Position numbers and translations under genes: made by a program | The notes under the pieces: generated by a model | What the model saw: only the letters and a program-made list of their open reading frames with translations | Told to the model about the DNA's origin: nothing | The model's database searches: none | From: a virus | Lineage: Duplodnaviria; Caudoviricetes | Reading direction: 5' to 3' (one strand) | DNA: 25,925 nt | IMG/VR virus record: IMGVR_UViG_3300033076_001064 | Span: 1-25,925 of that record | Shown: positions 5,731-16,949 of the stretch, in pieces | How the letters are laid out: the number at the start of each line of letters is the position of its first letter | Position numbering within the stretch: the stretch's first letter is position 1

Positions 5731-5903
5731 TGGCCGTTTACTTTGGTATTGCTGTTTTCCTCGTAACATTGGTGGTCGGCTTTGCGTCTACGCTCATCGA
5801 AACATTGGCCGCAAGCACGATCATTCTGAGCGCCACCGCCTACGGCACGGTGAGCGGTGCAATCATTTGGATGATGGAAACCGAACGTGACAAGAAAGGC
5901 TGA
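5727..5903 (+). CDS. Small membrane protein (58 aa, MMAVYFGIAVFLVTLVV...)
   Basis: Not in the ORF track. ATGA overlap with the mazG stop and two hydrophobic segments. Confidence 0.6.
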   Translation: MMAVYFGIAVFLVTLVVGFASTLIETLAASTIILSATAYGTVSGAIIWMMETERDKKG

Positions 5904-6609
5904 AGACAGTTCAGAACCACGGCAGAAGACCAACGGATTGAAGATGTCTCTGTCCTTGTTGCGGCAGATCAAGCCTAAAACGATCAGCCAGAACAAGTTT
6001 TTCGACGCCTATGACGCCCAGCGGGAGTTCATCCTGCTGGCCGGCAGCGCCGGAACCGGCAAGAGCTTCATCTCGATCTACAAAGCGTTGACGGAGGTGC
6101 TGGATACGTCCAGCACTTTCAAGCGGCTGATCCTCATTCGCTCGGCCGTGCAGACACGCGACGTCGGCTTCACGCCGGGCAATCTCGACGAGAAAATGTC
6201 GATCTACGAAGACCCGTATCACTCGATCTGCGCCACCCTGTTCGACCGCAAGGACGCCTATTCACGGCTGAAGGAGCAGCAATACATCGAGTTCACCAGC
6301 ACAACGGCTCTGCGTGGCATGACGTTCGACAACGCCATTGTCATCGCCGACGAGTGCCAGAACTTCACCTACCATGAGCTGAACAGCACGATTACCAGGA
6401 TCGGGAGGAACAGCAAAATCATCTTTGTCGGCGACGCCAAGCAGAATGACCTGATCAAGAAGGCCAGCGATCCATCAGGGCTCTTGCAGTTCATCGACAT
6501 CGCCCGCCACATGGACGAGTTTACGCCGATTTATTTCACGCCCGAAGACATCATCAGGTCAAAACTGGTCAAAGCGTGGATTATTGCCAGCGAACGATAT
6601 GCCTATTGA
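5887..6609 (+). CDS. phoH: PhoH-family ATPase
   Basis: Walker A GSAGTGKS, plus RSAV, GFTPG, LRGMTF, DECQN, TRIG, GDAKQND and EDIIRS motifs. The start codon is uncertain. Confidence 0.92.
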   Translation: MTRKAEDSSEPRQKTNGLKMSLSLLRQIKPKTISQNKFFDAYDAQREFILLAGSAGTGKSFISIYKALTEVLDTSSTFKRLILIRSAVQTRDVGFTPGNLDEKMSIYEDPYHSICATLFDRKDAYSRLKEQQYIEFTSTTALRGMTFDNAIVIADECQNFTYHELNSTITRIGRNSKIIFVGDAKQNDLIKKASDPSGLLQFIDIARHMDEFTPIYFTPEDIIRSKLVKAWIIASERYAY

Positions 6610-6618
6610 GGAAAACCA

Positions 6619-6876
6619 ATGAGTCTCGACGATACATTGCGGGAGAGAGGCGGCCGGTATGGCGACTTCAAAGACCATGCCAGCATCACCCAGGAACTTA
6701 AAGACGTCATGCGAGCCACCCCGAAATGGGAAGGGCTCAAGCCTTACCAGAAGGAAGCCTTGGAAATGATCGCCCATAAGATCGGGCGCATCCTGAACGG
6801 CGATCCCGACTATCAGGATAGCTGGCTGGACAGTGCCGGCTACGCCAAGCTCGTGGCCGATGAGCTCGACGACTGA
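6619..6876 (+). CDS. DUF6378-like phage protein
   Basis: ERGxxYG...KIGRILNGDPDYxDSWxDxAGY motif. GAGG RBS. Confidence 0.75.
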   Translation: MSLDDTLRERGGRYGDFKDHASITQELKDVMRATPKWEGLKPYQKEALEMIAHKIGRILNGDPDYQDSWLDSAGYAKLVADELDD

Positions 6877-7078
6877 GTGTGCGTTATGTGCCAGAGGCAG
6901 CCATATCTATGACTGTCTCTGTCTGGGCTGCTGCGCCCGTCTCGTGATGTCTGCGAGGCGTGGACGCAAGCAGGCTGCTACCCTGCTCGGCGCGCTCGAC
7001 ATGGCAAGAAAGTCGGTGCCCGGGCGCGTCGTCCCCAAGCGCGCAGCCATCATTGCGGAAGTGAAAAGCCGCATGTGA
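6860..7078 (+). CDS. Cys-rich small hypothetical protein
   Basis: CALC...CLCLGCCARL sequence overlapping the previous stop. Confidence 0.55.
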   Translation: MSSTTECALCARGSHIYDCLCLGCCARLVMSARRGRKQAATLLGALDMARKSVPGRVVPKRAAIIAEVKSRM

Positions 7079-7109
7079 CTGGTCGCGTTTTCACCTGAGT
7101 GGTAGGTTT

Positions 7110-7128
7110 TTCGAACCATTGATTCGGA
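7110..7128. promoter_or_regulatory. Imperfect 19-bp palindrome, putative operator upstream of PrtN-like copy 1
   Basis: TTCGAACCA-T-TGATTCGGA overlaps the GGAGG RBS. A related site lies at 9357-9375. Confidence 0.5.
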
Positions 7129-7135
7129 GGCCACC

Positions 7136-7411
7136 ATGAACACCGCCTTCTTGCTGATGGCTCGCTACGATGCGCGGGCCGTCATTCCCATCGAGACCAT
7201 CCAGAAAGATTTTTTCCCGCATTTGTCGCTGGTCAAGCTCGTCGGCAAATTGCAGGCCGGCGAAATCCCGCTGCCCATGGTGCGCATCGAGCCGAGCCAG
7301 AAGGCCGCCCGTGGCGTCCACGTTACTGACCTCGCCGCCTACATCGACCGTCGCAGGGAGATGGCACAGGTCGAGCTCGCTCGCATGGGAGGCTCGCCAT
7401 GCACGCTGTGA
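7136..7411 (+). CDS. Pyocin activator PrtN-family protein, copy 1 (possible recombination directionality factor)
   Basis: MNTAFLLMAxY...LP...SQKAARGVHxxDLAxYID motif. GGAGG RBS. Confidence 0.85.
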   Translation: MNTAFLLMARYDARAVIPIETIQKDFFPHLSLVKLVGKLQAGEIPLPMVRIEPSQKAARGVHVTDLAAYIDRRREMAQVELARMGGSPCTL

Positions 7412-7626
7412 TCGCGGTCTTCTACGGGCTGTTCACCTGGATGCTGATGGTCGTTTACGCCATCATCGCCCGCCCCGACCTCGTGGGGCTCGCTTTGGTG
7501 CTGGGGCCGTTCATCGCGTCAGGCATGACGCTGGCTTTGCTGCTGCTGGATGCTATCGTCGCCGGCATCGAGCGCGGTGTCCGCCGGCTCATGCCGCAGG
7601 AGAAGAAAAGAAGACCACGTTGCTGA
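7399..7626 (+). CDS. Small membrane protein
   Basis: GGAGG RBS, two TM-like segments, and a basic C-terminus. Confidence 0.6.
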   Translation: MHAVIAVFYGLFTWMLMVVYAIIARPDLVGLALVLGPFIASGMTLALLLLDAIVAGIERGVRRLMPQEKKRRPRC

Positions 7627-7631
7627 CTTTT

Positions 7632-7865
7632 GCTGCCAGAAATCGGCCAAAAACAGAAAATGAGGCACAACAACACACTGATTTTGCACCGTTTTCCTCT
7701 ATGCTCATCCACTCCATCATAGGGGCACAGGAAAAACGCCAGCGATTATAGGCAGTTACATTCATTGTCCGTCCAGTCATATTCGCCGATATTTGGAGCA
7801 CCAAGCCATTTTCGTCAATGAAATCAGCGAACGCTGGATCAAGATTCACCCGTTTCTGCCAGATT
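7632..7865 (-). other. attP-like site copy 1 with dusA-like 5' end
   Basis: The minus strand encodes AYNRWRFSCAPMMEW, resembling the DusA N-terminus RFSVAPMMDWTD. Core is CCACTCCATCATAGGG at 7709-7724. TGCCAGA motifs occur at 7634 and 7857. Confidence 0.7.
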
Positions 7866-8049
7866 CCACGCGCAACCGCTCGATTTCGTCCGCAGCGTCA
7901 CGCACAAGATCGCGCACCCACTCCTCCTGCTGAGCCTCGTGGGCGAACGCTCTCGTTCTCGCAATCGCCATCGCTGACTGCCGGCTCTCCTGCTCGCGAC
8001 GCAGCCGGCTCACGATGTCGTCGGTTTCGGACGGATCAAGCGAGCTCAT
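7846..8049 (-). CDS. Small phage hypothetical protein (DIVxRLR...AADEIERLR type)
   Basis: Recurrent phage motif. ATGA overlap with the upstream gene. Confidence 0.7.
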   Translation of the reverse strand: MSSLDPSETDDIVSRLRREQESRQSAMAIARTRAFAHEAQQEEWVRDLVRDAADEIERLRVESGRNG

Positions 8050-8345
8050 GGCTCACCAGTGGCTTTGGCAATGGCTGCGCGGGCATTGTGAATAGCCATT
8101 CCATACATGGTCACATCAACCGCCGTGATGCATTCCTTGATGGCGGCAAGCAGATCAGGCGCGGCGGCGATCAGGCGGGCGTCGGCATCGCTGAAGACAG
8201 CAGCGAAGACGGAGCCGTCTTCCTCTGTGATGGTCAGAATGGATTGACGTTCGGCAGAGACCGGACACAGCTTTGCGACAGTGCCGTTGTCGCCGCCGAC
8301 CTCAAACAATGACCACGGCCCAGGCGTGTGCGTTGGCTTATTCAT
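8046..8345 (-). CDS. Phage hypothetical protein (HTPGPW...DARLIAAAPDLL family)
   Basis: Well-known phage motif pair. AGGAGAG RBS. Confidence 0.8.
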   Translation of the reverse strand: MNKPTHTPGPWSLFEVGGDNGTVAKLCPVSAERQSILTITEEDGSVFAAVFSDADARLIAAAPDLLAAIKECITAVDVTMYGMAIHNARAAIAKATGEP

Positions 8346-8387
8346 AAACTCTCCTAAACAGTTGAAAACAATGCCATAATTCGTAAA

Positions 8388-9257
8388 TCATAGCTCACCA
8401 ACAAACAGGTCAAGTTGTTTTTGTTCGTTGTCGTTGGATGGGGTTGCGGAAGCGATCCGCTCCTGTTGAAGCGGCCCATAATCAGGGTTCAGCTCACACC
8501 CAAGATATTGCCGCGCAAGGCTGACCGACACCGCAGCCGTAGTGCCACTCCCCATGAACGGGTCGAGCACAATGTCACCGGGCCGGCTGCCTGCTAGGAT
8601 ACATGGCATGATGAGCGATGGCGGGAAGGTGGCAAAGTGCGCACCTTTGTAGGAGTGGGTAGGAACCGTCCAAACGCTGCGGCGGTTGCGAAAGCCATCG
8701 CTTTTGCGCCGAGCAAGTCCACCGTTTCCGTTTGTGCTCACAGCATCCGGGTGAAGCGCAGGCCCGCGCACCCTGCCGCACACCTCCGGCTCGCGCACTG
8801 CCTTGTGGTCGTAAAAATATCGCTCAGACTTGGTTAGAAGGAAAATGTACTCATGCGCTTTGGTGCAGCGGTCGCGCACGCTTTCCGGCATTGGGTTCGG
8901 CTTGTGCCAAATAATGTCCTGCCGCAGCACCCATCCGTCAGCTTGCAGCGCAAGCGCAACTCGCGCGGGGATCATGAGCAGCTGCTTGCCTTTCCCGTAG
9001 CTGTCCCCAATGTTCAGCCACAGCGTGCCATCATCGGCCAGCACATCACGCACGCAGCGGAATACCTCAGCGATCGCCGCAATGTATTCCTCTGGCGTGT
9101 GCTCCAGGCCAAGCTGCCCTTCGTGTCCGTAGTCGCGCAAGCCGAAGTACGGAGGGCTGGTTACGCACATCTGCGCTTTCACGCCATCGGCAGCCCATTG
9201 GCGCATGATGTTTCGACAGTCGCCGAACTCTATGACATTGTTCAAATCAGTTTTCAT
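8388..9257 (-). CDS. Orphan DNA methyltransferase, beta-class N4-C/N6-A
   Basis: Motif IV TSPPY precedes motif I DPFMGSGTT. Also WHKPNPMPESVRDR and HFATFP. Start taken as ATG 9257 (MKTDLN). Confidence 0.92.
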   Translation of the reverse strand: MKTDLNNVIEFGDCRNIMRQWAADGVKAQMCVTSPPYFGLRDYGHEGQLGLEHTPEEYIAAIAEVFRCVRDVLADDGTLWLNIGDSYGKGKQLLMIPARVALALQADGWVLRQDIIWHKPNPMPESVRDRCTKAHEYIFLLTKSERYFYDHKAVREPEVCGRVRGPALHPDAVSTNGNGGLARRKSDGFRNRRSVWTVPTHSYKGAHFATFPPSLIMPCILAGSRPGDIVLDPFMGSGTTAAVSVSLARQYLGCELNPDYGPLQQERIASATPSNDNEQKQLDLFVGEL

Positions 9258-9356
9258 AAGTTGATTTTGATTGGTGAGAAAAACTTGAGCAATGCCTGAT
9301 TCTACCACCATTGCTTCTTGTTTGCAGTTATTTCCTCAAACATAAGCGGATCGGCT

Positions 9357-9375
9357 TCCGAACCACTGGTTTGAA
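9357..9375. promoter_or_regulatory. Imperfect 19-bp palindrome, putative operator between divergent MTase and PrtN-like copy 2
   Basis: TCCGAACCA-C-TGGTTTGAA, related to the site at 7110-7128. Confidence 0.5.
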
Positions 9376-9420
9376 AACAGAACTACCAACAATGACCGCA
9401 TTGACACGCGAATCCGCGAT

Positions 9421-9458
9421 TCGGAGGATTCTTGAGCTAAGCCGCTCGGAGGACTCTT
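9421..9458 (+). repeat. 13-bp direct repeat containing an RBS
   Basis: TCGGAGGATTCTT (9421-9433) and TCGGAGGACTCTT (9446-9458), 12/13 identical. Confidence 0.6.
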
Positions 9459-9740
9459 ATGCCCCTCAACACCGCGTTCCTGCTCATGGCTCAGTATGGC
9501 GGCAGAGCCGTCGTCCCGCTGGAAGAGGTGCGGGTGGACTACTTCGGCCACCTCTCCCCGACCAAGCTGCGCGCGAAGCTCGACGCCGGAGAAATCAAAC
9601 TGCCGGTGATCTGGATCGAGCGAAGCCAGAAATCCGTGCGTGGCGTCCACATCACCGACCTAGCGACCTACCTGGACGAGCGCCGCAAGGAAGCGCACGA
9701 CACCTACCGGAAGCTCAATGGCAGCCCCTTCAGAGCCTAA
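9459..9740 (+). CDS. Pyocin activator PrtN-family protein, copy 2 (possible recombination directionality factor)
   Basis: Same motif as 7136-7411, with about 50/91 identical residues by manual ungapped alignment. GGAGG RBS. Confidence 0.85.
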   Translation: MPLNTAFLLMAQYGGRAVVPLEEVRVDYFGHLSPTKLRAKLDAGEIKLPVIWIERSQKSVRGVHITDLATYLDERRKEAHDTYRKLNGSPFRA

Positions 9741-9763
9741 CCATGGTCTGAAAATCAAACCTC

Positions 9764-10049
9764 GCTGGCAGAAAACAGCCAAAAACAGCGCAGGCAGCTC
9801 GCCAAACCACTGACAAAACAGCACAAAACTCTTTGTCTGCCCAATCCATCATAGGGCTCACCGAGAACCGCCAAGGGCTAAATCGCGAGGAATCACAATT
9901 ACTTAGCACTGTTTGACCCCCGGTATATCATCGAAACATGGTGCGCTTTTAGAACCGTTTTGCCAGATTTTTCCCCTTTTTTCCTTGCCCACTGGCAGAA
10001 ACGCTGCCAGAAAAATGGAGCGTCAGCGAGGCGTTCTGTTTTTTGGCAG
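9764..10049 (-). other. attP site (copy 2) with replacement dusA 5' end and integrase arm-type repeats
   Basis: The minus strand from GTG 9909 encodes MLSNCDSSRFSPWRFSVSPMMDWAD, divergent from the integrase. Core is CCAATCCATCATAGGG at 9841-9856. TG(C/G)CAG(A) repeats occur at 9766, 9961, 9993, 10005 and 10044. Confidence 0.8.
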
Positions 10050-10052
10050 GCC

Positions 10053-11207
10053 ATGGGCACCATCAGCACCTACAAGCGGAAAAACGGGGCGATCTCCTAC
10101 ACAGCCCGCGTCCGCATCACCCGTGATGGGACGGTCATCCATCAGGAGGTGGAGACCTTCGAACGCAAGGCGGATGCCGCGCTGTGGATGAAGAAACGCG
10201 AATCCCAGCTCTCCCTACCCGGAGCCATCGAGGCCATCAAGAACCCTGAGCCGACCTTGGGAGAGCTCATCACCAAGTACCTCGACAGCCTCATCGCCAA
10301 GTCAGGACGCACCAAGGAATACACCCTCAAGGCGATTGCGCGATCCGAGTTCGGCAAGCTGCCCGTGTCGCAGATCACCAGCCAGTCCATTACCGCCTTT
10401 GCCGAGACGCGGCTCGCCGGCAAGGCAGGGCCGGTGACGGTCGGCAATGACTTCGCCCTGCTGGGATCGCTGTTCGAGATCGCCAAGCCGGCCTGGGGCT
10501 ACGCGCTGGATCGTCAGGCGCTCATCGACGCCAAGGCGGTCTGCAAGCGGCTTGGCTACATCAAGCGCGCCAACCAGCGCGACAGACGTCCGACGCTGGA
10601 GGAGCTCGACCGGCTGTTGGCCTACTTCCACGACGCGGCCAGACGCCGGACATGGGTTCTGCCCATGCTGAAGGTGCTGCCCTTCGCCATCTTCTCCACA
10701 CGACGGGAAGCCGAGATCGTGCGCATCCGCTGGGACAAACTCGATCACGAGCGCAAGCGCGCGTGGATCAGCGACGTGAAACATCCCCGCAAGAAACTCG
10801 GCAACCACAAATGGGCTCAACTGACGCCGCAGGCGTGGGACATCCTCATGTCCATGCCGCGCGTCTCCGACCGCGTGTTTCCCTTCACGACCTCGGCGAT
10901 CTGCGCGCAGTTCGAGCGCGCTTGCGATTGGCTGGAGATCGACGATCTGAGGTTCCACGATCTGAGGCATGAGGGCGTGTCGTGGCTGTTCGAGCAGGAC
11001 TGGCCAATCCCTCGCGTGGCCGAGGTGAGCCTGCACGAGGACTGGAACATGCTCCGCCGGTACACGCACATGAACGGCTCAGGCGACAAATACGCCGGCT
11101 GGAAATGGCTGCCCGTGGTGATCGCCCATCAGCAGGGCGAAAAAAAGCCCCGCGCGAAGCGGGGCAAAAAGGCCCTTCAGGTAGAAATCAGTGACAGACG
11201 TCCGTGA
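10053..11207 (+). CDS. int: Tyrosine recombinase/integrase, DusA-associated integrase type
   Basis: N-terminus MGTISTYKRKNG..SYTARVR. Catalytic motifs STRR, DVKHP, FHDLRH, SLH and RRYTH. Divergent from a dusA-like 5' fragment. Confidence 0.92.
   Translation: MGTISTYKRKNGAISYTARVRITRDGTVIHQEVETFERKADAALWMKKRESQLSLPGAIEAIKNPEPTLGELITKYLDSLIAKSGRTKEYTLKAIARSEFGKLPVSQITSQSITAFAETRLAGKAGPVTVGNDFALLGSLFEIAKPAWGYALDRQALIDAKAVCKRLGYIKRANQRDRRPTLEELDRLLAYFHDAARRRTWVLPMLKVLPFAIFSTRREAEIVRIRWDKLDHERKRAWISDVKHPRKKLGNHKWAQLTPQAWDILMSMPRVSDRVFPFTTSAICAQFERACDWLEIDDLRFHDLRHEGVSWLFEQDWPIPRVAEVSLHEDWNMLRRYTHMNGSGDKYAGWKWLPVVIAHQQGEKKPRAKRGKKALQVEISDRRP
11140..11170 (-). terminator. Rho-independent terminator of the late/lysis operon
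   Basis: Stem GCCCCGC/GCGGGGC (11147-11165) with a 5-nt loop, followed by U7 on the minus strand, just downstream of the Rz stop. Confidence 0.8.
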
Positions 11208-11661
11208 CGAAGGATTGTAACCCATTTACCTGGAGGCGGAGCCGTTCAGCTCCGTCCGCCATGCTTCGATATTCTTCTGCGCACGTTCCAAGTAGCTTTC
11301 TTGCGGTGCCGGCTTGGCGAGCGAGGGCGGCAAGGGCGGGGTCTTTGGGAGCTGGGGCTGCGTTGAGACGTTCGATGTCGTGGCGCAGGCTGTCAGCAGC
11401 AGACTCGGCAAGATCAGCGCGAGACTGAAGCTCGGCTTCTTTCTGGGCTTGTTCACGGGCAATCCTGTCGGCGTTGTCGCGCATGGTCTGCTCCTTCGCC
11501 CGGTAGGCGACTTCCAGCTTGCGCGAGTTTTCGGAAATGATGGCTTGGTAATTGGCGAACGCCGCCTTGAGAGTGGCGTGGTGCGCTTCCTGCGCGACGA
11601 TCACCGCCAGCAGCAGGCCAATGATGGCAAGTGTCACCCATGGCGGGATCACGCGGATCAT
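11188..11661 (-). CDS. Rz: Inner-membrane spanin (Rz-like)
   Basis: N-terminal TM helix plus coiled coil, directly downstream of the endolysin, and containing a nested lipoprotein gene. Confidence 0.85.
   Translation of the reverse strand: MIRVIPPWVTLAIIGLLLAVIVAQEAHHATLKAAFANYQAIISENSRKLEVAYRAKEQTMRDNADRIAREQAQKEAELQSRADLAESAADSLRHDIERLNAAPAPKDPALAALARQAGTARKLLGTCAEEYRSMADGAERLRLQVNGLQSFVTDVCH
11226..11462 (-). CDS. Rz1: Outer-membrane lipoprotein spanin (Rz1-like), fully nested in Rz
   Basis: Basic N-terminus, hydrophobic core, lipobox LTAC and Pro-rich mature part. TTG start is uncertain. Confidence 0.8.
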   Translation of the reverse strand: MPVNKPRKKPSFSLALILPSLLLTACATTSNVSTQPQLPKTPPLPPSLAKPAPQESYLERAQKNIEAWRTELNGSASR

Positions 11662-12338
11662 AGCGCACCCTCATATTTGGGCATGCGCGACTTCAGGACG
11701 TCGCTGACATGATGGCGGTTGATGGTGCAGGCCGAGCGGCCGGCATAGAGCGGCTTGGTGGATTTGAGGCAGGTCGTCTCGACGTGCCCGAACCATTGGT
11801 GCGGATCGCATCCCTTGCGCAGACCGCAAGCGCGACGCTCGTTGATGACGCCGCCGAGCCCGCCATTGTAGGCAGCATCGGTCATGGCCAGCCGGCCGGC
11901 GTCATTGTCCACCAGCGGCATGAGCCTGTCCCAATTCGCGCGGCTCATCAGGATCAGGACGCGCATCTGCAAGTCCGGCCGCTGATAGACGGTCTCCCAG
12001 CGCAATTCGTTGAGCCCCTTGGGATCGAGCCGTCTGGCTTCATGCAGCGCATCGAAGCGCAGCGATCCGTCTTTCTTGTAAGCCCGTGTGATCTGACCGA
12101 GCCCTGCGCCTTCTTCCCTGTCCGTTTTTAGGCGGGACTGAGGGTTCCAGCATTTGGAGTGTTTGAGAGAAATGCAGCTTTCATGCTCGATGAGCCCGCC
12201 AAAATAGTGCGGAGCGAAGAAACCGGGCATGAGCTCGTCCACCTGCTGGCGGAGCATGGGCAGATAGGGTTCGGCTTGAGGGGGAACCTGAGCCTGGGCG
12301 GGAAGCGCCAGCAGCAAGGCCAGCGCCAGCCGTTTCAC
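11658..12338 (-). CDS. Endolysin, lytic transglycosylase (SLT-like) with N-terminal signal peptide
   Basis: IEHES catalytic Glu, GLGQ and AAYNGG motifs. GTG start at 12338 (GTGA overlap with the holin stop) gives MKRLALALLLALPAQA. Confidence 0.85.
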   Translation of the reverse strand: MKRLALALLLALPAQAQVPPQAEPYLPMLRQQVDELMPGFFAPHYFGGLIEHESCISLKHSKCWNPQSRLKTDREEGAGLGQITRAYKKDGSLRFDALHEARRLDPKGLNELRWETVYQRPDLQMRVLILMSRANWDRLMPLVDNDAGRLAMTDAAYNGGLGGVINERRACGLRKGCDPHQWFGHVETTCLKSTKPLYAGRSACTINRHHVSDVLKSRMPKYEGAL

Positions 12339-15900: not shown

Positions 15901-16464
15901 CAGCACTTCCTCGGCTGCCTGCAACAGGTCGTCTTGATTGGTGGCGTCGAGCCCGTACTGTTTCGCCTTGGCCAGCACGTCGCCTTTGCGCAGCGCCACG
16001 ATCTGGTCGAGGACAGGCTTCAGCGCGGAACCGTAGACGCCGCGCAGGCCGTAGTGCCCCAACCCCTCATGGAACAGCACTCTGGTGGCGTCTGCCGGGC
16101 TTTTCAGCTTGGCCGACAGATACACGGTGCCCTGATAGAAAAACCCCTCTGGCTCGCCCGTCGCGCCGCCTGAGCGTTGTTTCTGGTCGGCTGCTCTCAC
16201 CTTGGGCGGAATGGCAGGATCGCTCATGTCGGAAAACACGACAATCTTGGGAGGGTTCTTCCACGCCTTGGCCAATGATGACGCGGTATCGCGCACCATC
16301 GCCCCCTGCTCCATCGAAGGCGCAACAGCCTTGAAAGCCGAGGCAGCGCGATCCGGCAGCAGGCGCGCGAGATTGTCGCCAGACGCCAGATACGCTTTCA
16401 GCGCCGGCTTGCCTTCCAGCGTGATAGGGCCGTTAGGCGTGTTAAACGTATAGCGGCATGTCAT
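12970..16464 (-). CDS. Large polyvalent/internal virion protein with zincin-like peptidase motif and LPD38-like C-terminal region
   Basis: 1164 aa. VLFHEGLGHYG near the N-terminus. NPAFIIRNxxRD, VDFDRKG, YLFFNPAVQG and NRNSFGSQIVP patterns toward the C-terminus, with hydrophobic segments. Confidence 0.7.
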   Translation of the reverse strand: MTCRYTFNTPNGPITLEGKPALKAYLASGDNLARLLPDRAASAFKAVAPSMEQGAMVRDTASSLAKAWKNPPKIVVFSDMSDPAIPPKVRAADQKQRSGGATGEPEGFFYQGTVYLSAKLKSPADATRVLFHEGLGHYGLRGVYGSALKPVLDQIVALRKGDVLAKAKQYGLDATNQDDLLQAAEEVLSELAQTRPELGFVKRALAAIRTWLRQNVPGMGNLELSDAEIIRDYLLPARAYVENGVQTGRDMAEAAFSRSTPKPTGLTLPEQGLLRRLQASLQDNFNRVRQVQERISKMTGQPVSEYANYYGAETQRPGRIAARLEDFERGMTAPLMAKLAKSGHTIEQLSELLHAMHAEERNEAVAKINPDMPDGGSGMTTADAKKILSKYRTNATLHALADDAREIARATLDLKLAYGLIDADTYATLDVMYENYVPLKGDGEYGPKIKRAMGHEEREEFIIQNIARDYQQAVVAGEKNLARQSLAQLVLENPDPKLWTVGIPPRGRYVAGTVFSVRNGGNEIATFTSKSQVSAFLEGVGPQAAQFEVYAGGERVREFVRPLQDNEVPVYINGQLVRMQIIGDEQLASQLRPLNQGQMHPILEMMRVMNRHLARVYTGYNPAFIIRNMARDAMTGSINMIGNEGSGIAAKAWVNYPAAMKALFAYAATGKVPSGEAGVMLDEYRQNGGKTGASWMSDLEQQGKTLQRLFDDAYGATGYLKDKNYAKAASVAGRKIVGGMAHTIEVLNQATENSLRLALYMAMRKDGRSAGEAAQAAKSVTVDFDRKGTLSPALGAIYLFFNPAVQGTANAIKTLVKGKHRAQAWTTLGVLAALGFYMASQGMDDDEDRWLGESWETRSKNMLMNIGGSHISVPVSMEFAPFYAAGVAMAEGKKTGGMAAAAHVVSSFLNAYFPLQGLYIEDSDNRVLDAVGATIPTIIKPGFQIATNRNSFGSQIVPDNEFTKDRPDNLKLYRGTKGSPFEAVSQGLASAGEAMGAGRYENDISKVSPETLKMLWRTYTGGLGQFVTDLGSLANVAARDASVETSDVPIVKDFVKANDVKAIRGRYYDLVKEAHAASEEFKQAKKAGDDEAMDAILSNPDKAQMMSFDRMIRSTSKAAAEMRDAMVDINADKSLGLAEKRAKLKEIEKDEEALYRDAIAVFRD

Positions 16465-16949
16465 GAGCCCATTTCCTGATCAATCAGCAGAACGCCGGCC
16501 TCGTTCTGTCCGGCCCTCGCCAGACGGGTCAGCAGGTCGCCATATTCGCCGATGCTGGTGCGCTGGATGTCCAGGAATTGCAGCATGAACTGCTGCACCA
16601 TGGGCTGATCCGCGACCGCCTTGAACCAGCGTTCGTAGTCCTGTCCGAGCTGCAATTCAGTGTCGTAGGCGATCTCCAAAGCGTCCTGAAGGCTCGCCAC
16701 TTTGTCGGTGATCGCTTCCAGCATCGGCACCTTGGCCACCGTCCCCATGTCATTCATGAAGTCGGCGATCTTCTGGTAGTGCTCCAGCTCGTCGGCCGAC
16801 TCGGAGGCAAAGTGCTTCTGCGCCCCGAAATACCCGATGCGCTGCAACTGGTTCGCCAAGTGCCGGTAGAGGTGCGAGGCGTAAAGTTCAGCCTGTACCG
16901 CTTCGTTCAACGCGGCTTCGTTTGATTTGGAAAGGAGATTCTTCAGCAT
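16461..16949 (-). CDS. Non-heme ferritin (FtnA-like)
   Basis: 162 aa. E21, Y28, E54, H57, E98 and Q129 match the spacing of FtnA E17, Y24, E50, H53, E94 and Q127 as recalled. The C-terminus GVLLIDQEM resembles GLYFIDKEL. Confidence 0.85.
   Translation of the reverse strand: MLKNLLSKSNEAALNEAVQAELYASHLYRHLANQLQRIGYFGAQKHFASESADELEHYQKIADFMNDMGTVAKVPMLEAITDKVASLQDALEIAYDTELQLGQDYERWFKAVADQPMVQQFMLQFLDIQRTSIGEYGDLLTRLARAGQNEAGVLLIDQEMGS

Follow-up and report, generated by a model that had tools for sequence, protein, structure and literature searches.

Introduction

In DusA-associated integrase (DAI) islands, a tyrosine integrase gene lies beside a dusA-like core, a replacement 5′ end is supplied for the gene, and prtN is found nearby in 60 of 94 islands; in the available text of that survey, the islands were found through their integrase, all of them encode one, the smallest measures 4758 bp, and relatives include the Burkholderia phages DC1, BcepIL02 and BcepMigl (Farrugia 2015, PMC4482086). 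For dusA elements in Vibrio, the accessible part of a second study reports the PrtN homologue RdfN as the sole recombination directionality factor (RDF), and describes IEVpaBan1a and IEVpaBan1b in tandem at dusA, the second with an RdfN homologue (Durand 2021, 10.1101/2021.06.18.448947). Cis-mobilizable elements (CIMEs) are described, again in the text available, as having no integration genes, keeping their att sites, joining an incoming element through a chimeric internal att, and moving in cis (Guedon 2017, PMC5704250). Here we analyze a 25,925-nucleotide stretch of viral DNA (IMG/VR record IMGVR_UViG_3300033076_001064; "the window"), in which a temperate phage with one DusA-associated-type integrase carries two dusA-type cores. 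We find that the 2132 bp between the cores are an insert at the phage attachment site (attP), and propose that this insert is a captured mini-island without an integrase of its own.

Two dusA-type attachment sites beside one integrase

The window derives from a temperate phage whose relatives are Bcep22-like phages of Burkholderia and Ralstonia; its genes include RecT (PF03837), PhoH, lysis genes and a DarB-like protein. Phage genes flank the attachment region on both sides, so the record represents the excised form. The open reading frame (ORF) at 10053-11207 encodes a tyrosine integrase (PF00589) with R218, H302, R305, H328 and Y337 intact. Relatives 41-51% identical to this integrase sit at dusA, and in 8 of 26 viral loci a dusA body (TDRH..R) lies upstream of an integrase 44-50% identical to it. 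In pairwise comparison it is 53% identical to the integrase of phage DC1, which is counted as a DAI in the available text of Farrugia 2015 (PMC4482086). An earlier note, made from the sequence alone, had called this protein a DusA-associated integrase. The catalytic residues, the dusA-sited relatives, the core at 9845-9856 with PWRFSVSPMM beside the integrase gene, and the two PF11112 genes all bear that out.

The same note had described a duplicated att-like stretch, and the duplication is genuine. Positions 7632-7741 (copy 1) and 9764-9873 (copy 2) align without gaps at an offset of 2132 bp with 69 of 110 identities; in 20 local shuffles of 6500-12000, the top 110-nt diagonals reach 51-55. 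The left block (22 of 25 identical), CACTGA and the core recur in both copies as described, and each copy encodes a DusA-like N-terminus on the minus strand (RWRFSCAPMMEW and PWRFSVSPMMDW) beside its core, in agreement with the claim that replacement dusA starts are supplied. A weight matrix for dusA-type cores, trained on 114 other cores, finds only these two sites in the window (scores 26.8 and 24.4) and none in 20 shuffles, as expected if the copies are true recombination-site sequence. The right-side motifs CCGTTTCTGCCAGATT (7850-7865) and CCGTTTTGCCAGATT (9955-9969) are also present, but the conserved spacing claimed for them is not: they lie at +139 and +111 from the core.

Both genes upstream of the copies encode PF11112 PrtN proteins, and related palindromes (CGAA-N7-TTCG, then GAGG) precede them at 7112-7126 and 9409-9423. 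The suggestion that PrtN acts as a directionality factor fits the Vibrio data, as far as that source is available (Durand 2021, 10.1101/2021.06.18.448947). PrtN1 and PrtN2 are 57% identical, no closer to each other than to other family members, so the pair does not reflect a recent duplication.

Close relatives carry a single attP

Five public sequencing runs (X1-X5) hold the window stretch or part of it. X1 and X2 come from two other studies and contain the same phage, 93-98% alike to the window. In one X2 contig, 7712 continues directly into 9845: exactly 2132 bases are absent, and 12 letters at the joint fit both sides. One X1 contig runs from 7726 to 9866 via 7 different letters, again a net skip of 2132. 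The flanks of these joints differ from the window at 19/274 and 42/1936 positions in X1, and at 24/331 and 38/1161 in X2. The joints show that the native attP consists of the left arm of copy 1, the core and the right arm of copy 2. Since the relatives have this single hybrid attP, copies 1 and 2 are reciprocal hybrids flanking an insert, and 7713-9844 is almost certainly an insert at the attP core. Within the insert lie a replacement dusA start, genes for two small proteins and a DNA methylase, and a second PrtN/RdfN excisionase gene; neither ORF inspection nor family scans found integrase or transfer genes in 7713-9844.

The single attP of X1 differs from the window to the right of the core (window 9857-9865), encoding WRFCTAPMM instead of WRFSVSPMM, so the replacement start varies between strains beside the crossover. 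X3 lacks attP and most of the integrase gene. In this close relative, 7559 and 11093 are fused at 7 letters common to both; prtN1 is still there, attP and almost the whole of int are gone, and 5878-6873 (PhoH, DUF6378) is missing as well. It is probably a form of the same phage that does not integrate. X4 (share 0.11) gave scattered short matches only. Both cores are crossed by contigs of X5, which may be the source sample: one stretch covers core 1 (7350-8109) and another core 2 (9000-10250), with 0 differences and a similar depth of 9.5-11.6.

The attachment region is laid out as follows.

7112..7126: palindrome CGAA-N7-TTCG before the phage prtN, a possible regulator box
7136..7411, plus strand: PrtN1, the phage's own PrtN/RdfN-family excisionase (PF11112, E 6e-26; phrog_1300 excisionase); covered in the single-attP relatives
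7399..7626, plus strand: hydrophobic ORF of 75 aa in the phage backbone, without family assignment; covered in X1-X3
7627..7712, plus strand: phage left (P) arm, retained in X1 and X2
7634 and 7645 (-84/-73): direct-repeat pair TGCCAGAAA and GGCCAAAAA in the phage left arm, likely integrase (Int) arm-type sites
7713..7724, plus strand: core of copy 1, TCCATCATAGGG, left boundary of the insert; an internal site of hybrid make-up (phage P arm, island P′ arm)
7725..7866, plus strand: mini-island right (P′) arm, likely truncated, with one arm-type site at 7857
ATG at 7765, minus strand: replacement dusA start MNVTAYNRWRFSCAPMM in the island P′ arm
7846..8049, minus strand: o67, a 67-aa protein of an unnamed family common to other integrase-less mini-islands; no Pfam or PHROG match
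8046..8345, minus strand: o99, a small phage-type protein (phrog_1273, E 6e-17)
8388..9257, minus strand: N6/N4 DNA methyltransferase, cargo (PF01555, E 1e-50; phrog_67); a longer start at 9311 is possible
9409..9423: palindrome CGAATC-N3-GATTCG before the island prtN
9459..9740, plus strand: PrtN2, mini-island PrtN/RdfN-family excisionase, intact (PF11112, E 5e-28); not covered in the single-attP relatives
9741..9844, plus strand: mini-island left (P) arm, with the repeat pair TGGCAGAAA at 9766 and AGCCAAAAA at 9777 (-84/-73)
9845..9856, plus strand: core of copy 2, right boundary of the insert; predicted to be the attP that the composite phage uses
9857..10052, plus strand: phage right (P′) arm, complete, with sites at 9961, 9993 and 10005 and an inverted copy at 10040; retained in X1 and X2
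GTG at 9909, minus strand: replacement dusA start in the phage P′ arm
10053..11207, plus strand: DusA-associated-type tyrosine integrase (PF00589)

Arm sites and crossover overlap

Reading repeats by eye across loci in attP form, we found a direct-repeat pair usually near -85/-73 on the left. The right side has a second pair, between about +120 and +157, and an inverted copy that precedes the integrase start. By analogy with lambda-type integrases, these are likely Int arm-type sites. Copy 2 has the complete set. Copy 1 has the left pair and a single right-side site (+139), located inside the end of o67, and is without the right-arm trio. The 22/25 left block corresponds to the left repeat pair, so island and phage share arm sequence. 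The last seven residues of o67, considered as proof of a deletion junction, were set aside as weak because C-termini vary within the family.

The smallest block common to the att pairs of one locus, from seven loci with at least two cores, is TCCATCAT, and it is the same in both copies. The base that makes the dusA start MMEW- or MMDW-type (E or D) lies outside this block, and in two loci (L162 and L166) D-type arms are inserted in MMEW-type dusA genes.

Integrase-less mini-islands at chromosomal dusA

A search of genomes with PrtN2 (79 loci) identified L164, a locus in an alphaproteobacterial metagenome-assembled genome (MAG). Here three units, 2330, 2388 and 1721 bp long, lie one after another behind an intact dusA gene (above the NCBIfam cut-off), and every unit has prtN and a core at its end. 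The ends of the units are 88-97% alike and their middles differ. One of the three prtN genes is frameshifted. The locus contains no integrase, and a search of this incomplete MAG with one query gave no DAI match. Unit 1 has the same gene order as the window insert (o67-like gene, methylase, prtN), and two L164 units carry o67 homologues (34-36% identical) in the same place and on the same strand. The sequence CGAACCA precedes prtN1, prtN2 (window 7112-7119, 9359-9366) and all three L164 prtN genes, and is a candidate shared regulator site.

The inner arms of the window insert resemble those of such units. Beyond the DusA motif, the right arm of copy 1 gave values of 40-48 against four cassette arms of L164 and a further locus, L309; the next value was 24 and the median 16 (n=123). 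The left arm of copy 2 gave 46 against the three left arms of L164, followed by 30 (n=126). The right arm of copy 2 is closest to arms of Bcep22-like phages. In L309, a metagenome contig, dusA precedes a first unit of 2088 bp, whose arms are complete and which lacks both an integrase gene and prtN. Beyond it come an arm of the L164 type and an o67-like gene, with no further core behind them. Limited, exact-pattern searches found no integrase-bearing member of the window arm family. Searches of phage and plasmid collections found no near-identical copy of the insert, and only methylase, prtN and int pieces matched.

We also observed, in Rhizobiales, dusA islands of another type that likewise lack an integrase (L162 9856-11710, L166 9838-11176, L214 9854-13478; also L171, L180, L196 and L202), in which prtN starts about 150 bp after attL and variable cargo follows, 1.3-3.6 kb where a far core is seen. 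Four genomes with such islands were searched for a DAI, with no match.

A second phage with the same layout

Through alignment of o67 we found L354, a viral record of 63,284 bp rated complete. Two cores enclose a unit of 2279 bp that contains an o67-like gene and a second prtN; the first prtN lies before this block, and int and then lysis genes lie after it. The L354 integrase is 46% identical to that of the window, and the two backbones are 64-75% alike in a few stretches. The L354 unit has o67, prtN and upstream DNA in common with L164 units, but its arms are not of the window insert's family, in keeping with a separate capture. Counting double cores with the weight matrix among 23 different loci in attP form whose upstream sequence spans 2.7 kb or more (11 attL and 2 coreless loci set aside), we found a second core in L354 only; L354 was itself found through a cargo gene, so the unbiased count is 0/22.

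Non-coding blocks upstream of the cassette prtN genes are conserved between L354 (5000-5160) and L164 (7990-8130), at 83-86% over 46-57 nt, and possibly represent a structured RNA. Rfam gave no match at gathering score in four sources and none in window positions 7000-10100 at E<=1; L354 had one chance-level match.

A model for capture and carriage of the insert

The empty site in relatives, insert ends that lie within the core, island-type inner arms and a second phage with the same layout lead us to a capture model. The sequence comparisons indicate that the window probably represents a Bcep22-like temperate phage with one dusA-type attP, carrying at its core a captured, integrase-less mini-island of 2132 bp. 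In this model, the phage would have integrated by site-specific accretion at a dusA 5′ end that had been restored by a resident mini-island. The resulting tandem would read dusA, phage P′ arm, phage genome, phage P arm, core, island P′ arm, island, island P arm, core and old dusA start. Int and RdfN would then have excised at the outer sites, and phage and island would have been packaged together. The island's arm repeats match those of the phage, which would allow the phage Int to use them. Copy 2, with its complete arms, is predicted to act as attP, and copy 1 as an internal attR-like site. In the next host, excision that uses copy 1 would free the phage on its own; the island would stay behind in dusA, where MNVTAYNRWRFSCAPMM, which matches the MAVTHWNRWRFSCAPMM heading L164's dusA, would restore the new host's gene; excision at the outer sites would take the island along again.

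Several points weigh against this model. We found no chromosome with the window phage beside this mini-island, and the succession of steps is thus a reconstruction. A free island circle inserting into the phage attP gives the same sequence, and the direction of change, gain in the window or loss in X1 and X2, is not proven. Copies 1 and 2 form an excisable pair on the phage circle, and no joined (empty) form was seen in X5 contigs, which drop rare variants; the sites may thus be little used. The L354 unit does not belong to the window insert's arm family. That family is also rare: exact-pattern searches for the arm found 0 matches in viral contigs and 1 in 301 genomes (that of L164 itself), and of 88 metagenome matches to the arm pattern one had a dusA-type core (L309). 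A quick tree of PrtN proteins (172 rows, 86 columns) does not resolve kinship. Finally, o67 was rejected as a dusA-specific marker, as a search of 401 genomes of one family gave seven matches, none with a dusA core or prtN within about 10 kb.

Alternative explanations

The insert could instead be a one-off relic, the end of a decayed prophage captured once at the core, with copy 1 inert and no redeposition. Its cargo is phage-type, the right arm of copy 1 stops after one arm-type site with o67 reading into the arm, the first unit of L309 has the appearance expected after deletion of int and prtN, and the joined form is missing from X5 contigs. We nonetheless judge this unlikely: the insert still has an intact PrtN2, left repeat pair, core and replacement start (with the motif upstream of that start), all of them conserved in L164, all five sites of the arm family lack an integrase, and the L164 units have the same ends around different cargo. 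Excision of the phage alone would need the left arm of copy 1, which is whole. The earlier note had named a mosaic relic as an outcome that would count against its proposal; that case, too, fits poorly with an insert ending in the core and a layout that recurs in L354. A related idea, that homologous or illegitimate recombination between two dusA phages made a mosaic without any action of Int on an island, is very improbable. Phage genomes are mosaic, and the 12-nt identity could serve the phage RecT (PF03837), but both ends of the insert fall in the crossover core with exact core duplication, and the insert arms match chromosomal integrase-less units rather than phage arms.

The proposal of the earlier note itself was that the phage has two alternative attPs, each with its own directionality factor, for MMEW- and MMDW-type dusA genes in different hosts. 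Both copies do combine a core with a replacement dusA start and a left pair at -84/-73, each lies downstream of a prtN gene, and copy 1 keeps one right-arm site. Yet relatives from two other studies, X1 and X2, have a single hybrid attP, copy 1 is without the right-arm pair and inverted copy of the attP loci we inspected, and integration through copy 1 would part int from attL. The identical overlap TCCATCAT, with the E/D base outside it, and the D-type arms in E-type dusA genes of L162 and L166 leave no basis for allele-matched sites; MMEW is moreover rare, in 2 of 42 dusA bodies examined. We consider this proposal highly unlikely. Least credible of all is an assembly chimera of a phage contig and a host island. 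The record is a metagenomic contig, and no listed X5 contig bridges 8110-8157 without differences. Against this, X5 contigs cross both cores without differences and at similar depth, o99 reads through the 8110-8157 gap and matches its own family end to end, and L354 shows the layout independently.

Relatives of o67 and other observations

The o67 family has 112 relatives. Of the seven genomic matches above, three are no more than about 1.5 kb away from the 3′ end of guaA, and one is next to a tRNA-Arg. These o67-family genes sit in small islands after guaA (L369, L370 and L372) or after tRNA-Arg (L371). L372, a unit of 1.6 kb, contains a methylase and has a repeat of the guaA end as its boundary; a direct repeat of the anchor was not found in L369, L370 or L371. 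L370 has a reverse-transcriptase-like ORF with weak retron matches, and L369 shares 250 bp with the L354 unit. Two pairs of o67 homologues (protein clusters P0033/P0077 and P0104/P0108) have longest contigs of equal size within each pair (3745 and 3590 bp), and are perhaps further cassette arrays. An alignment of o67 searched against metagenome contigs gave nothing confirmed, and phage and plasmid collections gave no match. In viral records, 13 matches were generic, without att core or prtN, and a further viral search returned only L354.

Elsewhere in the window, a ferritin-like gene (PF00210) lies at 16461-16949, between genes for the DarB-like protein and an LPD38 virion protein. Another viral contig (L103 5995-8685) has three PrtN-like genes and a distant (28%) integrase, and no dusA-type core.

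Discussion

Our analysis shows a phage whose attachment site is occupied by a passenger island and whose relatives display that site empty. Two attP copies in one phage genome do not necessarily imply a wider host range. The arrangement suggests a route between hosts for islands without integrase or transfer genes, and a route for phages to gain methylases at a fixed point; integrase-based surveys of dusA islands would miss this class of small elements. Phage-borne cis-mobilization is testable here with one integrase, two excisionases and two 330-bp sites. A broader reading, which we offer tentatively, is that the insert belongs to an undescribed class of non-autonomous cassettes of about 2 kb that retain only DAI-type arms, a replacement dusA start and their own excisionase. 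Such cassettes might stack at dusA in the manner of integrons, join the attP of any compatible dusA phage, be packaged and be dropped at the next dusA, swapping methylases and small genes, and their cousins might use guaA.

Integrons, too, stack recombinase-less units at one site. Integron cassettes, however, are single promoterless ORFs, whereas the mini-islands have several ORFs on both strands and DAI-type cores at their junctions.

As far as the available sources show, accretion, chimeric internal att sites and cis-mobilization are known for conjugative elements; tandems of a phage with an integrative and conjugative element (ICE), and a tandem at dusA, have also been described. Our literature search, which covered few subscription papers, found no integrase-less RdfN mini-islands at dusA and no phage holding one in its attP. 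Unlike the window, the available text of the DAI survey describes no integrase-less 2-kb units and no two-core phage (Farrugia 2015, PMC4482086). The Vibrio dusA elements, in the portion of that study available, are large, have integrases and are moved by conjugation, whereas the window partner has no integrase and lies inside an excised phage genome (Durand 2021, 10.1101/2021.06.18.448947). A phage-ICE tandem formed by site-specific accretion and excised by the phage integrase has been reported, in which, according to the text available, the ICE carries the phage by conjugation; in the window, by contrast, the passenger is inside the phage genome (Huang 2026, PMC13651849). The words "dusA" and "CIME" occur 0 times in the main text of that paper.

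The closest parallel is the CIME. The window insert has no integrase or transfer genes and has att sites at both ends, one of them chimeric with its carrier. On these two structural features it would work like a CIME, and we infer movement in cis from two excised phage genomes. CIMEs, in the text available, are decayed ICEs or integrative and mobilizable elements moved by conjugation (Guedon 2017, PMC5704250), whereas the carrier here is a phage, the insert has its own RDF, and similar-sized units recur and stack.

The insert also invites comparison with small elements that depend on phages for their spread. Phage satellites such as P4, phage-inducible chromosomal islands (PICI) and phage-inducible chromosomal minimalist islands (PICMI) are small elements that ride a helper phage and have their own integrase and replication genes. 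The window insert, in contrast, has neither, and is carried covalently inside the genome of its helper.

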